Shown here: positions 1-4,944 of the stretch, piece after piece | How the letters are laid out: the number at the start of each line of letters is the position of its first letter | Position numbering within the stretch: position 1 is the first letter of the stretch | Virus record (IMG/VR): IMGVR_UViG_648276662_000020 | DNA from: a virus | Lineage: Duplodnaviria > Heunggongvirae > Uroviricota > Caudoviricetes | Reading direction: 5' to 3' (one strand) | DNA: 4,944 nt | Notes under the pieces: model-generated | Told to the model about the DNA's origin: nothing | What the model saw: the letters and a program-made list of their open reading frames with translations, nothing else | Database searches by the model: none | Translations under genes and position numbers: made by a program

Positions 1-35
1 CCCCCCCCCCCCCCCCCCCCGGGGTGGGGGGGGCG
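1..35. repeat. Homopolymer block: C20 followed by G-rich run (GGGGTGGGGGGGGCGG); probable sequencing/cloning artefact or contig edge
   Basis: Directly visible: 20 consecutive C, then 16 nt that are G except one T and one C. No coding potential; no resemblance to any motif I recognise. Confidence 0.9.
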
Positions 36-62
36 GTTTTAATGCAGTTGCACTGACACGCT

Positions 63-90
63 CAGACCGCGCCGGGAATGGTGCGGTCTG
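63..90. other. Inverted repeat / stem-loop (8-bp stem CAGACCGC / GCGGTCTG, 12-nt loop) in the region distal to psu
   Basis: Perfect 8-bp reverse-complement arms at 63-70 and 83-90. No flanking T-run, so not called a terminator. Confidence 0.4.
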
Positions 91-118
91 CAGAAAATGA
101 GGCAGGAAAACGCATGCA

Positions 119-150
119 AAGCCATGCACCTTATCGATGCATGGCTTTTT
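119..150. terminator. Candidate bidirectional intrinsic terminator (9-bp stem AGCCATGCA / TGCATGGCT, 9-nt loop, T-run on + strand; interrupted U-tract on - strand)
   Basis: Stem 119-127 pairs with 137-145, followed by TTTTT at 146-150. It lies 35-60 nt downstream of the psu stop on the minus strand, where the minus-strand read-out after the stem is TTTGCATGCGTTTTCC. Confidence 0.5.
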
Positions 151-181
151 TCAGTAAAAACGGGAGGATTTTCGGGGAATT

Positions 182-755
182 TTACACAGACTGACGTGAT
201 GCCAGTTGCGCACTTTTACGCGAAAAAATCATGTTCTGCGCAGGGGTGAATTTTTCACGGCTGTCATCCACCGAAGCCGCGTCAGGCCTGAATCCGATGG
301 TCGTTAAAATGTCACTATCCTGTGCGGAATAATTAATTTTTTCCCCCCTTCGCAAGCCAGGACAGAAGGGCTTCACGCAGGGCATCTGTGGCACGCTGTA
401 TGGCACAGTTTCGGGCAATGGCCGTCAGCTCACTGTAGCCCATCAGCTCCGGTGCCAGTGCCGCCGCCAGTGCTGTGCCGTGCTGCTGCATAAAATCATT
501 CAGCCGGTCGCGGATGCTGATGTGCTGAACGGCTTCATGCGAACGAATATAACGACCGGCGGCCTGATTCACCTGCCATTTTCTGACTTCGATAATATTG
601 CGTAATTCGTCCAGGCGACTGACGTTTCTGCCTTCTCCTGACTGAAGCCGCAGATATTCCTGTTCGGCCGCAGCCAGCTCATTTTTGCGTTGCAGCCATG
701 CTGCTTTGTTATTCTGACAGGTGTCAAAGGCCTGCTGTAAGGCTGTGCTTTCCAT
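182..755 (-). pseudogene. psu: psu (polarity suppression / capsid decoration protein, Rho antagonist), interrupted by a +1 frameshift in a G6A6 homopolymer at about 336-347
   Basis: ORF 333..755 (140 aa, ending ...WLAKGGKN*) and the C-terminal 53 aa of ORF 182..418 (EKINYSAQ...RQSV) are in adjacent frames. Removing one base from the run GGGGGGAAAAAA joins them into exactly 190 aa, the length I recall for P4 Psu. Position immediately downstream of delta fits the sid-delta-psu operon. Confidence 0.75.
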
Positions 756-828
756 CGTTATCTCTTTCTCATCATGCTGAAGAATAAAAATACGGTGTGC
801 GGCGACGGCCGGTGTTAACCGGCAGCCC

Positions 829-1329
829 TCATTCCAGACGCAGCGAATATGATTGTGTTTTTAACCGTACTGGCGGCAGTTCCTGTTTTTCATGCAGGCT
901 TTCTGCAAGCTCGTCCGGCGTGACCGGGCGGACAATGAAGCGGTTGATGGTCTGAAGCGTTTTAAACACCAGACCACAGCCCGGATCCGTGCACACATAA
1001 AAACGCTCGGTGACTTCCTGAGACAGACGCCGCGATGTTCTTGACAGCGCAAGGCCTTTACATCTCCGACAACAATATCCGGTAACAAGCATTCTTTTCG
1101 GGCGCTTCATGCTGCCGGAGGCTGACGTCAGTGAATCGCGGTATCTCTGTTTGCCTGAAATGTATTCCATTCCTGAATCTTTACAGTCAGAGAAAAAGCT
1201 TTCACTCGCTTCAAATGTCGCAGAGCAATAAATATTCCGGCACTGTGCAATCATTATCTTGGTGCCATCGTCCATGAAATGTGCGCGACGGGTATGAGCA
1301 ACATGTCCACACGACGGGCAGTAAATCAT
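829..1329 (-). CDS. delta: delta: late-gene transactivator, tandem duplication of an Ogr-type zinc-finger domain (166 aa)
   Basis: Two C-x2-C ... C-x4-C motifs (CPSCG...CRNIYC and CCRRCKG...CTDPGC) in a 166-aa protein, as expected for P4 Delta. The start ATG overlaps the sid stop (ATGA), indicating translational coupling. Confidence 0.85.
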   Translation of the reverse strand: MIYCPSCGHVAHTRRAHFMDDGTKIMIAQCRNIYCSATFEASESFFSDCKDSGMEYISGKQRYRDSLTSASGSMKRPKRMLVTGYCCRRCKGLALSRTSRRLSQEVTERFYVCTDPGCGLVFKTLQTINRFIVRPVTPDELAESLHEKQELPPVRLKTQSYSLRLE

Positions 1330-2060
1330 GACAGCAGTCCTCTGGCCTTAAGCTCTGCTCCCTGCTGGTCTATTTTGTCCTGCCACACCTTGCGCTGTGC
1401 CGGTGTGCCTGCCACCTCATAATCCATGTGCGGGAGTGTTGCCGCTGACAGTCCGGTCAGCCGGAGAACCGGCTCGCCGGTGAGGCTGATTTGCATCTGT
1501 TTTATTTTCTGTTCCAGCGATGATTTCACCTGCTGCATGACAGCCGTATCGGGTGCGACGTAGCCCTGATGCCCGGTGGTGTTGGCGAGCGGATTTTCCT
1601 GTACCAGAATGCTCAGATGCATTGCCCGGACAAGCGCCTCACAGGTTTCATTCAGGGCGTGTTCCAGCTCATGCTCTGCATACAGACTCAGAAGGTGATG
1701 ATGTGCCTTCCGGTAGGCGGTGGCCGTGCTGTCACACGCCCCTTTCAGGCGTTCGCGTTCAAAATTCAGCACCACGGCCAGATTGTCATATTCCTGTACC
1801 AGCTCCCGGCGTGCCACGCGCTCAATGTGGCGCTGTTTCAGCTCGTCGCTCAGGACACCACCGGCTGCACGAAAGGCCGTGCGCCAGTCGTCAGCGTCGT
1901 TTCCGTCGGCCTGCGTCAGCGCATTTTTTTCCTGCTCTGCCCGTTCAATGGCCGTGACGGTCTCATCCATCAGGCGGGCGTTCTCAAGATGGGCGGCTCT
2001 GGCCTTTTCCAGTTGTGCCAGTGCGGGTTGCAGATATTCAGGGATAGTGTGGTCAGACAT
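1326..2060 (-). CDS. sid: sid: capsid size-determination (external scaffold) protein, 244 aa from ATG at 2058-2060
   Basis: The ORF track gives 250 aa from an upstream ATG. I prefer the internal ATG (MSDHTIPEY...) because a GAGGAG Shine-Dalgarno sits 6-11 nt upstream and 244 aa matches the recalled Sid length. First gene of the leftward late operon. Confidence 0.8.
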   Translation of the reverse strand: MSDHTIPEYLQPALAQLEKARAAHLENARLMDETVTAIERAEQEKNALTQADGNDADDWRTAFRAAGGVLSDELKQRHIERVARRELVQEYDNLAVVLNFERERLKGACDSTATAYRKAHHHLLSLYAEHELEHALNETCEALVRAMHLSILVQENPLANTTGHQGYVAPDTAVMQQVKSSLEQKIKQMQISLTGEPVLRLTGLSAATLPHMDYEVAGTPAQRKVWQDKIDQQGAELKARGLLS

Positions 2061-2085
2061 TTTCCGGCTCCTCGTCACTTCAGGT

Positions 2086-2150
2086 TAAGAAAATTGTGAC
2101 GTACACCGGACAACAACACGACACATTGCAGATGTGCCAGTCCTGACACA
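2086..2150 (-). promoter_or_regulatory. Psid-like late promoter: Delta/Ogr activator site TGT-N12-ACA at 2133-2150, -10-like CACAAT (minus strand, 2094-2099)
   Basis: TGT-N12-ACA is the established recognition dyad of Ogr/Delta activators, centred near -55. Centre at 2141.5 predicts a TSS near 2086, giving a ~26-nt leader to the sid ATG. Confidence 0.5.
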
Positions 2151-2227
2151 GGAGACTCATCCTCACACCGGCAAGCCAGGAAAAGGTCACAGGAAAAACC
2201 GGCTTACTGTTTGTTTTTTATATTTTA

Positions 2228-2333
2228 CTGTTCACCTCTGTTCACCTTAATAAAAAAGATAAGTAATACAGTAAGTTAAAGGGTGAACAATCGCAGTAAT
2301 GACTGTTTACCGTCTATTCACCACTGTTCACCC
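2228..2333. repeat. Replication-origin-like iteron cluster (P4 ori-type): octamer TGTTCACC in direct and inverted copies
   Basis: Perfect TGTTCACC at 2229-2236, 2239-2246 and 2325-2332; inverted copy GGTGAACA at 2282-2289; one-mismatch copies at 2304-2311 and 2315-2322. An AT-rich stretch follows (about 2370-2460). TGTTCACC is the alpha-protein binding octamer of P4 ori/crr as I recall it. Confidence 0.6.
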
Positions 2334-2436
2334 GTTGATGGGCTTTTTGTGCTGTTTACTACTGTTTGTTTTTATTAATTCGCCGGGAATGAATAAGAAA
2401 AAACGATTTGTATTTCACTATAAAAATTACGAATTG

Positions 2437-2466
2437 CTTTAAGTGGCTTTAAATGACTTTAAGTGG
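2437..2466. repeat. Three tandem 10-bp repeats (CTTTAAGTGG / CTTTAAATGA / CTTTAAGTGG) at the edge of the AT-rich region
   Basis: Directly visible head-to-tail 10-mers; units 1 and 3 are identical, unit 2 differs at 2 positions. Function unknown (origin unwinding element or regulator binding site). Confidence 0.6.
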
Positions 2467-2491
2467 AGATGAACAAAAAACACACAAGCAT

Positions 2492-2556
2492 TGTAAGGCT
2501 GCCGGAACAAATCCCCCCTGTTGCGTCTGCTGAAAATATTTACAAAATAAAGCGCT
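2492..2556 (+). promoter_or_regulatory. PLL-like Delta/Ogr-dependent late promoter upstream of vis: TGT-N12-ACA at 2492-2509, -10-like TACAAAAT at 2541-2548
   Basis: The dyad centre (2500.5) predicts a TSS near 2555, about 395 nt upstream of the predicted PLE start, matching the ~400-nt PLL-PLE spacing reported for P4. The -10-like sequence resembles that of the Psid candidate. Confidence 0.45.
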
Positions 2557-2611
2557 ACCCGAAGCCGGACGGACTTATCCGGTGCTGTATGGACATTAAC
2601 GAGGTAGCCCG

Positions 2612-2878
2612 ATGCAAGCTGTTTTTTCTTCCCCGTCTCCCGCCCCTGTGACACCACTGATGCCGCTGCCGGACATCACGCAGGAGCGTTTTTTACGTCT
2701 GCCGGAAGTGATGCACCTGTGCGGCCTGTCACGCTCGACCATCTATGAACTCATCCGTAAGGGGGAATTTCCGCCGCAGGTGAGTCTTGGCGGTAAAAAT
2801 GTGGCCTGGCTGCACTCTGAAGTCACCGCATGGATGGCCGGGCGCATCGCCGGACGCAAACGGGGGTACGACGCATGA
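2612..2878 (+). CDS. vis: vis: AlpA/Vis-family helix-turn-helix regulator / excisionase-like protein (88 aa)
   Basis: 88-aa ORF with a GAGG Shine-Dalgarno 7 nt upstream; the central segment [28 protein letters not shown] is typical of AlpA-family HTH proteins. Position and size match P4 vis (orf88), the first gene after PLL. Confidence 0.8.
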
Positions 2879-3474
2879 TGATGCCCGCTCTGCAAAAACT
2901 CCCTTTTTCTGGCTTGCCTTTTTCCGGCATTTGCGGATATAGTTTTTCCGCTGTCGCAAAATCGGCAGCCGGGCGTGGAAACCCGTGTAACTCGAAGGCG
3001 ACATATGACGCGCCATGCGTCTTTTTTTGTGTCGCAATCAACGCCACAGAGCGCCAGATTATGGTGTGGTGTGTGGTCAGTCGTGCAGATGGCATTCCGT
3101 GCATCCTGCCCGCGTCCGCTCATTATGCCGCAGAGTCAATGGTAGCTCAGGCGGGGCAGCCTCCGGGCTGGCCGGTATTCTTCGAGGCCGGTATTTCCAC
3201 CCCCGTCTGGGCTATCGCCATTGAGCGTGGAAACTCCGGCTATAGCAGTTATTTGCTACTCGAAGGAGGCTGCCTTATGGCTACAACCCTTACCCCCTCA
3301 CACCCTGAATTTGTCTTTGTGTTTGCGGCTGTCCGTCGTGCAGACCGTCATCCCCGTATCTGTATGCTTCGCACCGTCGCCGGTGATGAACGCAGTGCCC
3401 GCCGTTCCCTTGTCCGTGACTATGTGCTCTCCCTTGCTGCCCGTCTGCCGGTGATGGGGGTGTCCCGTGCGTAA
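2875..3474 (+). CDS. eta: eta: long ORF beginning upstream of PLE, with kil as its in-frame terminal part (197-199 aa depending on which of three consecutive ATGs is used)
   Basis: Three consecutive ATG codons at 2875-2883 overlap the vis stop (ATGATGATG) and give 199/198/197 aa, matching the description of P4 eta as I recall it. I reject the ORF-track start at 2830 because it lies inside vis. High-GC non-coding RNA sequence is embedded, so coding status rests largely on the literature. Confidence 0.55.
2914..2950 (+). promoter_or_regulatory. PLE-like sigma70 promoter: -35 TTGCCT (2914-2919), 18-nt spacer, -10 TATAGT (2938-2943)
   Basis: Hexamer match and spacing read from the sequence. Lies just upstream of the seqA-like element and about 330 nt upstream of kil. 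Adjacent repeated CCTTTTTC (2902-2909, 2917-2924) could be a regulator site. Confidence 0.4.
3007..3028 (+). terminator. Intrinsic-terminator-like hairpin (GACGC / GCGTC stem, 5-nt loop) followed by T7, immediately downstream of the seqA-like element
   Basis: Stem 3007-3011 pairs with 3017-3021; T-run 3022-3028. The short stem makes it a weak candidate; it may act as an attenuator or pause site in the PLE leader. Confidence 0.3.
3165..3210 (+). ncRNA. cI: Candidate core of the cI-type immunity RNA (seqB-like), complementary to the seqA-like (2971-2998) and seqC-like (3224-3268) elements; ends not determinable
   Basis: The reverse complement of 3172-3200 contains GTGGAAA...CTCGAAG. Both blocks also occur in direct orientation at 2975-2981 / 2991-2997 and 3227-3233 / 3259-3265. 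This matches the P4 immunity arrangement in which CI RNA pairs with seqA and seqC on the nascent transcript. Confidence 0.4.
3277..3474 (+). CDS. kil: kil: 65-aa host-killing peptide, first gene translated from PLE transcripts
   Basis: ATG at 3277-3279 preceded by a strong Shine-Dalgarno GAAGGAGG (3262-3269), giving exactly 65 aa, the size reported for P4 Kil. The Shine-Dalgarno lies inside the seqC-like element. Confidence 0.6.
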
Positions 3475-3754
3475 TAAAAAAGCCCCTCAGACCGTCTCAG
3501 CGCGTCATGACGCCCGTGAACACCTCAGCATTGAGGCTTACCATAAGCTCAACCGCGCCAGCGCCGTATCCCAGTTTGTTGGGGGTGATTTGATTCACCG
3601 TGAACTCTCCGGCCTGCATCAGCTCTACATTCCGCATATTTTCAGCTACCTGAATGAAGATATTGATTTTGTGCTGAATGAGCTGAAAGCCAAAGGCCTG
3701 TGCCGCGATTTTCTCGCCCAGCAGAAAGACCGGGGAGACAGGACGCATGTTTGA
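3467..3754 (+). CDS. epsilon: epsilon: small protein (95 aa from GTG), candidate derepressor/antirepressor of the helper prophage
   Basis: The ORF has no in-frame ATG; GTG at 3467-3469 overlaps the kil stop and is preceded by a G-rich stretch. Its stop overlaps the next ORF start (ATGTTTGA). Identity is inferred from position between kil and the 151-aa ORF; the start codon is uncertain. Confidence 0.55.
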
Positions 3755-4202
3755 TTTTCCCCAGCCCGGTGAGATTTACCGTTCTGCCGGTTTTCCCGAT
3801 GTGGCCGTGGTCGGCATTCTGGAAGACGGTATTCCGTGGGAAATGCCGTACCGCTGCCCGGAAATTGTCTGGAACCCGTACCGCCGTAAATTCAGTATCC
3901 TTGTGCGTATCCTCGCCGACGGGCGCACCACAGACATCCCGCTGGGGCGTTTTCTGAGGGAATTTACCTGTGACCGTCCTGACCTGTTTAAACGCAGCCC
4001 CGTAAACCGGCATGCGGTACTGAAAGAAATGGCCGGAGACCCGGAATTACAGAAATGGCGGGAGAAATATCTGGATATTTACCCGCAGGACACTGTTCCG
4101 GTCAGCCGGGCGGCACCGGTGGCGCGGGAATGGCGGGAAATTCCCCGCACGGAGCCTGACCCGGAAATCACCCCGGATAACAGTTACCGCAATTATCTGT
4201 AA
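3747..4202 (+). CDS. Conserved hypothetical protein of the left operon (151 aa; orf151 in P4 nomenclature)
   Basis: ATG with Shine-Dalgarno GGGGAGA 8 nt upstream; length and position match P4 orf151. Function unknown. Confidence 0.75.
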   Translation: MFDFPQPGEIYRSAGFPDVAVVGILEDGIPWEMPYRCPEIVWNPYRRKFSILVRILADGRTTDIPLGRFLREFTCDRPDLFKRSPVNRHAVLKEMAGDPELQKWREKYLDIYPQDTVPVSRAAPVAREWREIPRTEPDPEITPDNSYRNYL

Positions 4203-4230
4203 TTAAAAAACGACACCCGAAAAATTAAAT

Positions 4231-4256
4231 GTGCGTATTCGCGCAGGGATACGCAC
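4231..4256 (+). other. Stem-loop (8-bp stem GTGCGTAT / ATACGCAC, 10-nt loop) in the intergenic region after the 151-aa ORF, without a T-run
   Basis: Perfect inverted repeat read from the sequence. It is not followed by a U-tract, so it is more likely an RNA processing/stability element or protein site than an intrinsic terminator. Confidence 0.4.
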
Positions 4257-4337
4257 GTCTTCAGGAGACGCAGATATGCCTTATCAGTTAATGCAACCGG
4301 CACGGAATGCAGTCATCTGTCACAGGGAGGAAAGCAA

Positions 4338-4658
4338 ATGAAAACACCCTTACCGCCCGTCTTACGCGCAGCCCTTTACCGTCGCGCTGTCGCCTGTGCC
4401 TGGCTGACCGTGTGCGAACGTCAGCACCGCTACCCGCATCTCACCCTTGAATCACTGGAGGCGGCCATCGCCGCTGAGCTGGAAGGCTTTTATCTGCGCC
4501 AGCACGGTGAGGAAAAAGGGCGTCAGATAGCCTGTGCCCTGCTGGAAGATTTAATGGAATCCGGCCCCCTGAAGGCCGCGCCGTCGCTGTCCTTTCTCGG
4601 GCTGGTTGTGATGGATGAACTCTGTGCCCGTCACATAAAAGCGCCGGTACTGCACTGA
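4338..4658 (+). CDS. Conserved hypothetical protein of the left operon (106 aa; orf106 in P4 nomenclature)
   Basis: ATG with Shine-Dalgarno GGGAGG 8 nt upstream; ends 14 nt before the alpha start. Function unknown. Confidence 0.75.
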
Positions 4659-4672
4659 AGGAGAACAACACC

Positions 4673-4944
4673 ATGAAAATGAACGTAACCGCCACCGTCA
4701 GCCATGCGCTCGGCCACTGGCCGCGTATTCTCCCGGCGCTGGGGATTCAGGTGCTGAAAAACCGTCATCAGCCCTGTCCGGTCTGTGGCGGGAGTGACCG
4801 CTTCCGTTTTGATGGCAGGGAGGGGCGCGGCACCTGGTACTGCAATCAGTGTGGTGCCGGTGACGGCCTGAAACTGGTTGAAAAGGTGTTTGGTGTCTCC
4901 CCGTCCGACGCGGCCACAAAGGTGGCTGCCGTGACCGGCAGCCT
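4673..4944 (+). CDS. alpha: alpha: replication primase-helicase, N-terminal 90 codons only (zinc-ribbon primase domain); continues beyond the window
   Basis: ATG at 4673 with Shine-Dalgarno AAGGAG at 4658-4663. The translation MKMNVTATVSHALGHWPRILPALGIQVLKNRHQPCPVCGG...WYCNQCGAGDG carries a C-x2-C ... C-x2-C zinc-binding motif typical of P4-alpha-type primases. The frame stays open to the window end. Confidence 0.9.
   Translation, partial: MKMNVTATVSHALGHWPRILPALGIQVLKNRHQPCPVCGGSDRFRFDGREGRGTWYCNQCGAGDGLKLVEKVFGVSPSDAATKVAAVTGS

Follow-up and report, generated by a model that had tools for sequence, protein, structure and literature searches.

The satellite phage P4 protein Psu (NP_042044.1) has been described structurally (PDB 3RX6/4DVD) and in cryo-EM complexes with Rho (8PEU, 8PEW, 8PEX, 8PEY, 9GCS, and 9GCT). 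The protein consists of seven helices, of which alpha1 and alpha2 form a coiled-coil stem and alpha5 to alpha7 constitute a "CT-belt" wrapping around this stem, while the central region with alpha4 forms a knotted dimer (PMC3821671, PMC7552001). The C-terminal region comprising residues 170-190 (helix 7) binds Rho directly, and the substitutions P157L/S, R166C/P, and F169V lead to the loss of Rho binding, antitermination, and overexpression toxicity (PMC3737525). In the Rho-Psu cryo-EM structures, alpha7 (170-186) occupies the cleft that separates two C-terminal domains of Rho, where it covers the nucleotide pocket; the same study describes Psu as a potent toxin at high levels and proposes that the psu operon reads through into co-directional defense cargo (PMC11718236). 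In addition, Psu has a capsid-stabilizing role that is reported to be non-essential for P4 viability, and in its P4 paralogue Sid, which shares the same fold, the C-terminal helix makes most of the contacts with the capsid protein gpN (PMC7552001).

The locus considered here is located in a stretch of 4,944 nt (hereafter the window), which aligns to the reverse strand of the P4 record (X51522 / NC_001609) with 97.9% identity over positions 30-4944. By its sequence, it corresponds to the right arm of an Escherichia coli prophage of the P4-like satellite type. According to the P4 annotation and the list of open reading frames (ORFs), the gene order is cos, psu, delta, sid, the ori repeats, an 88-aa Vis/AlpA-like gene, the cI/Icd region, epsilon, orf151, orf106, and the start of alpha. 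As in other P4-like satellites, psu is the last gene of the sid-delta-psu late operon and adjoins cos. Of 5,426 complete E. coli genomes, more than 1,000 harbor a close relative as a prophage, the closest one (99.9%) being found in E. coli Br_178_kylling (L003), where the element adjoins ssrA and carries an integrase. The gene order of the window is shared by L002, L003, and L004 (GCA_946407085.1, an NCBI assembly), all of which contain an integrase and cargo beyond cos. Apart from psu, all genes of the window are intact, as are alpha and the integrase of L004. The features relevant to the following analysis are:

1..29 (no strand): corrupted contig end, C20 followed by GGGGTGGGG, replacing cos-region sequence; L003, L004, and L005 read GCTTTCCCCGCCTCGCCCGCCCGCTTTGC here.
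182..755, minus strand: psu of the P4-like satellite, a frameshifted allele or pseudogene owing to a 1-bp insertion, identified from the P4 annotation under the match and from the repaired translation, which equals WP_001430678.1.
333..755, minus strand: translated N-terminal ORF, Psu 1-137 followed by GKN, with the TAA stop at 333-335, giving a 140-aa product (ORF list; PF07455 positions 1-134; exact protein EFK17744.1).
337..348, minus strand: homopolymer tract G6A6 (GGGGGGAAAAAA) with an extra G; the closest intact relative (L003) has C5.
182..343, minus strand: out-of-frame C-terminal remnant, Psu 138-190 (alpha5-alpha7, the Rho-binding part) and the original stop (PF07455 positions 134-181).
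829..1329, minus strand: intact delta, which encodes a zinc-finger activator of the Ogr/Delta type and lies upstream of psu in the sid-delta-psu operon (ORF list, P4 annotation, Pfam PF04606).
1326..2060, minus strand: intact sid, which determines capsid size and opens the operon (ORF list, P4 annotation; without indel relative to L003).

On the plus strand, the disrupted site reads AATTAA TTTTTT CCCCCC TTCG, in which T6 occupies 337-342 and C6 occupies 343-348, one base away from the interval 336-347 given in the original prediction. The minus-strand codons at the break are CTT GCG AAG GGG GGA AAA AAT TAA. The proposal that the two minus-strand ORFs (333..755 and 182..418) join into exactly 190 aa upon removal of one base was recomputed and holds: deletion of one C from 343-348 yields a 573-nt ORF of exactly 190 aa. 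Translation as written likewise bears out the predicted ending ...WLAKGGKN, giving 140 aa in which 137 native residues are kept, followed by the non-native tail GKN, and the last 53 residues (138-190) are lost. The Pfam family PF07455 (Psu; curated cut-off 27.4 bits) matches the N-terminal ORF with 207.4 bits at profile positions 1-134, while the remnant in the other frame (185-343) scores 73.1 bits at positions 134-181 of 182, so that the two pieces abut exactly. A single continuous ORF of approximately 190 aa covering the whole profile is absent from the window, the match being split at position 134 between two frames. The residues of helix alpha7 (170-186, including the conserved P171/A172/Q173 and K/R180) are thus encoded within 182-343, out of frame with the N-terminus. 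Since the insertion is a deterministic sequence feature, chance is not at issue. On sequence grounds, the psu gene of the window is a disrupted member of the Psu family (pseudogene or truncated allele) rather than a member of another family.

The suggested alignment against the reference P4 protein confirmed this identity, as the repaired protein is identical to P4 Psu at 188 of 190 residues (differences Q38L and A159V). P4 psu corresponds to this gene and likewise lies in a sid-delta-psu-cos arrangement, whereas the window allele carries a 1-bp insertion after codon 137 and leaves residues 138-190 untranslated in frame. The intact allele matches the Psu of PDB 3rx6 with E=9e-120. In P4, Gly137 is encoded by GGT, which interrupts the G run (GGGTGAAAAAA), whereas the allele widespread in E. 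coli prophages has the synonymous codon GGG and, because of this codon, a run of five G. A three-way alignment accordingly shows T6C5 in E. coli 4/4, T6-CACCC in reference P4, and T6C6 in the window. The repaired window protein shows 100% identity to the intact Psu that is common in P4-like prophages of E. coli (WP_001430678.1; for example strains 4/4 and Br_178_kylling), and over 150-800 the DNA of this intact allele is identical to the window except for one extra base (G5A6 vs G6A6 in the window). Over 30-4944 (4,915 aligned bases), the window and L003 differ by six substitutions and a single indel, namely the extra C. Moreover, a protein of E. coli MS 21-1 annotated as "phage polarity suppression protein (Psu)" (EFK17744.1) is exactly the 140-aa product of the window (333..755). 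The exact truncated product is therefore already present in public databases, and the locus represents an unremarkable frameshift in a gene that is already well known; nothing here points to a novel type of system.

Because a one-base change in a homopolymer invites the suspicion of an artifact, the distribution of tract lengths was surveyed. Complete genomes were searched with 36-mers so that each megablast seed (28 nt) had to span the tract, as 651-nt and 70-nt queries confounded "G6 plus a SNP" with "G5". Among 5,426 complete RefSeq E. coli genomes, the G5A6 36-mer was found at 810 places at 100% in 751 genomes, and the G6A6 36-mer had no match. An exact 31-nt G6A6 pattern likewise had no match in GTDB species-representative genomes or in IMG/VR viral contigs, the source contig of the window included, and the same pattern retrieved one contig from a metagenome scan, the ENA contig OJKQ01001218.1 (L005). 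Alleles were further counted by exact look-up of their protein products in a collection of 15 billion proteins:

G5A6 (intact): at least 1,000 contigs.
G6A6 (allele of the window): 150 contigs.
G4A6: 7 contigs, the longest 1.5 Mb.
G5A5: 2 contigs, the longest 5.19 Mb.
G5A7: 0 contigs.
G7A6 and G6A7: 0 contigs.
G6A5 (E138G missense, WP_001463789.1): 1 contig.

The 150 contigs encoding the exact 140-aa protein extend up to 5.17 Mb and come from NCBI, JGI/IMG, Logan, ENA, and NCBI nr; in a gene-position index, the protein occurs in 226 blocks, with the same neighboring genes in all 24 contigs read. The 72-kb contig L004 carries the same G6A6 tract (GGGGGGAAAAAA), with no mismatch to the window over 150-800 and three differences over 30-4944 (4,915 positions). 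L005 also has G6A6 and differs from the window at two positions, and L004 and L005 are 99.97% identical to each other over 12.4 kb. The DNA of the out-of-frame remnant is identical to that of intact alleles. The contigs with G4A6 and G5A5 could represent either long-read deletion errors or rare real mutations. Two substitutions, at window positions 2308 (C>T) and 3957 (C>A), are unique to the window in comparison with L002-L005 and P4; the latter is synonymous in orf151 (AGG vs CGG), and both may reflect strain variation or consensus errors.

These data bear directly on whether the frameshift is real. The G6A6 allele is uncommon: neither the complete RefSeq genomes nor the GTDB representatives nor IMG/VR contain it, so that the evidence for its existence comes from draft assemblies and metagenomes. 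It could be argued that the true tract is G5A6 and that psu is intact in the organism from which the window derives, since a +1 change in homopolymer length is a classic sequencing or assembly error, the first 29 bases of the window are corrupted and homopolymeric, which indicates an imperfect assembly, and none of the 5,426 complete genomes carries G6A6. The extra C as the only indel relative to L003 would, taken alone, also suit an error, and the rare -1 alleles at the tract, with longest contigs of 1.5 and 5.19 Mb, could be long-read deletion errors. At least one early source, the HMP strain E. coli MS 21-1, may have been sequenced on a platform prone to homopolymer errors. Against this stand the identical allele on approximately 150 contigs and in 226 index blocks (NCBI, JGI, ENA, and Logan) and the two independently fetched contigs lying within two to three SNPs of the window haplotype, as an error arising at random would not track a single haplotype. 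Furthermore, the tract does not yield systematic insertions, given that complete genomes contain G5A6 at 810 places and that at least 1,000 contigs have it too. An error is thus improbable, and of the two possibilities raised in the original prediction, a homopolymer sequencing error is disfavored by the near-identical haplotypes of L004 and L005, while a real truncated allele is favored by approximately 150 contigs from four independent sources with a shared haplotype. The odd homopolymers at the window start, which had been suggested to fit an error in the psu tract, are a separate artifact with no bearing on psu, the tract being confirmed by independent contigs.

If the allele is real, the split frames might still be functional. 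One such reading is programmed recoding, in which +1 ribosomal or transcriptional slippage on G6A6 would supply full-length Psu(E138G) in small, possibly beneficial amounts. The sequence AAA AAT TAA would indeed allow tRNA-Lys to re-pair with the overlapping AAA in the +1 frame, producing ...AKGGKINYSAQ... (a stop follows two codons later), and full-length E138G occurs naturally as the missense allele WP_001463789.1, which suggests that this residue change is probably tolerated. A low dose would also be in keeping with the toxicity of Psu at high levels (PMC11718236), and the C-terminal remnant is still perfectly intact; however, the latter is equally explained by a recent mutation. The need for a frameshift is not conserved, as psu is encoded in a single frame in at least 1,000 contigs, in 810 complete-genome copies, and in P4 itself, and at the slip position the A site would hold AAT, a common Asn codon that is neither a stop nor rare. 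Reading of the upstream sequence revealed no Shine-Dalgarno-like stimulator of +1 frameshifting, nor was any other stimulatory element apparent. Homopolymer runs of six are shorter than those known to give efficient transcriptional slippage, and recoding is considered highly unlikely. Even less credence is given to a contingency switch by which psu would frequently alternate between ON and OFF in a population. Such phase variation could account for the presence of G5 in Br_178_kylling and G6 in the window, L004, and L005 despite only seven differences in 4.9 kb, as well as for the existence of G4A6 and G5A5 at low frequency. Yet OFF alleles number 0 of 810 in complete genomes, alternative lengths are found on nine contigs vs 150 for G6A6, which is in keeping with a single clonal event and not with repeated toggling, the gene neighborhood is the same in all 24 G6A6 contigs read, and the tract contains only five to six G. 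Typical contingency tracts are longer than 5-6 nt. A further reading, to which only a small probability is assigned, holds that G6A6 is a selected attenuation, either through Psu(E138G) made by slippage or through a coiled-coil/knot fragment with its own activity, altering Rho-dependent read-through into the cargo; the activity of such a fragment may consist of dimerization or of partial capsid or Rho contact via R43/D49/E56. If so, the lineage would escape Psu toxicity and change read-through into its co-directional defense cargo. Independent translation of the C-terminal remnant was also considered and appears unlikely, because the alternative-frame TTG at 418 and an inner ATG are not preceded by a Shine-Dalgarno-like sequence. 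Isolated Psu helix 7 has been reported to be inactive (PMC8141534).

Consequently, the disruption of psu is very probably an inherited one-base insertion that created a loss-of-function allele in an otherwise intact satellite. Its inheritance is indicated by the many independent assemblies sharing G6A6 on one haplotype, and the dominance of a single frameshift allele on that haplotype argues for one event followed by clonal spread rather than recurrent error or rapid phase variation. The mutation also appears to be recent, given that the remnant is still identical to intact alleles and that every other gene in the window is intact. Mechanistically, one G would have been gained in the G5 run spanning codons Lys136-Gly137-Glu138, most likely through replication slippage, changing AAG GGG GAA to AAG GGG GGA, after which translation would stop three codons later at TAA. 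The 140-aa product would then keep the alpha1/alpha2 coiled-coil and the dimer-forming alpha4, with the whole belt alpha5-alpha7 gone. An AlphaFold (AF2) model of this product from the single sequence contains helices at residues 4-38, 45-105, and 112-135, with a mean pLDDT of 81. In the model, the break falls just past the last retained helix, taken as alpha4, with alpha5 onward missing.

The structural literature supports one of the two roles that had been suggested for the lost region and fits the other less well. Its importance for Rho antagonism is well documented through alpha7 (170-186/190) and residues P157, R166, and F169 (PMC3737525, PMC11718236). Dimerization, in contrast, is assigned to the central region and alpha4 (PMC3821671, PMC7552001), which lie upstream of the break and are retained. 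The laboratory mutants P157L/S, R166C/P, and F169V (PMC3737525) affect the same functional region as the window lesion, namely the C-terminal belt and alpha7, but they are point substitutions in full-length proteins, whereas the window allele lacks all of 138-190 and is therefore more drastic. As the belt with alpha7 is missing, and in light of these point mutants and the structures, the 140-aa product should neither bind nor inhibit Rho by the known mechanism; without alpha7, which covers the nucleotide-binding pocket of Rho in the Rho-Psu structures, the anti-Rho function would be lost. Capsid decoration by the truncated Psu is probably lost as well, by analogy with the paralogue Sid, which contacts gpN via its C-terminal helix; Sid itself is intact in the window (1326..2060), and its likeness to Psu in capsid binding is assumed here. 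The satellite is probably still functional, since the capsid role of psu is reported to be non-essential and the other window genes, together with alpha and the integrase of L004, are intact.

For annotation, psu at this locus should be recorded as a frameshifted pseudogene or truncated allele and not "repaired" as a sequencing error, whereas the homopolymers at the contig start (1-29) should be trimmed as an artifact. The allele would represent a natural loss of function in an anti-Rho toxin and capsid-decoration gene, carried on more than 100 contigs with the rest of the satellite intact, and natural loss of psu suits the published reports that the gene is dispensable and toxic at high dose. 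Such a natural C-terminal deletion could be used to ask how Psu affects the expression of co-directional defense cargo and the transfer of the satellite. The cargo between cos and int is mosaic (L004 10878-13619; L002 2988-5729; L003 6081-7620). In L004, the gene following cos encodes a 913-aa Mrr_cat/nSTAND1 protein and is co-directional with psu; this gene of the G6A6 element (L004 and L005) is 99.3% like its counterpart in E. coli 4/4, whereas the core of the element (the range of the window) is closest to Br_178_kylling, whose cargo differs. Loss of Psu could conceivably lower both the cost of the element and the expression of its cargo.

Positions 1-29 of the window are a contig-end artifact separate from the psu lesion. 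They could mark either the end left by cos cleavage of packaged DNA or a place where the assembly broke off in the GC-rich sequence around cos. If the replacement at 1-29 keeps the length, position 1 corresponds to the third base of the 19-nt cos GTGCTTTCCCCGCCTCGCC. Scans of the window for promoters and terminators yielded no feature relevant to the psu lesion that exceeded the expectation from shuffled sequence. An inverted repeat, GCCATGCA-N9-TGCATGGC, followed by T6, is located at window positions 121-151, approximately 30 nt downstream of the psu stop, and was missed by the simple terminator scan because its loop measures 9 nt. The repeat is terminator-like on the plus strand, with a weaker T tract on the psu strand, and may act as a bidirectional terminator between psu and cos.
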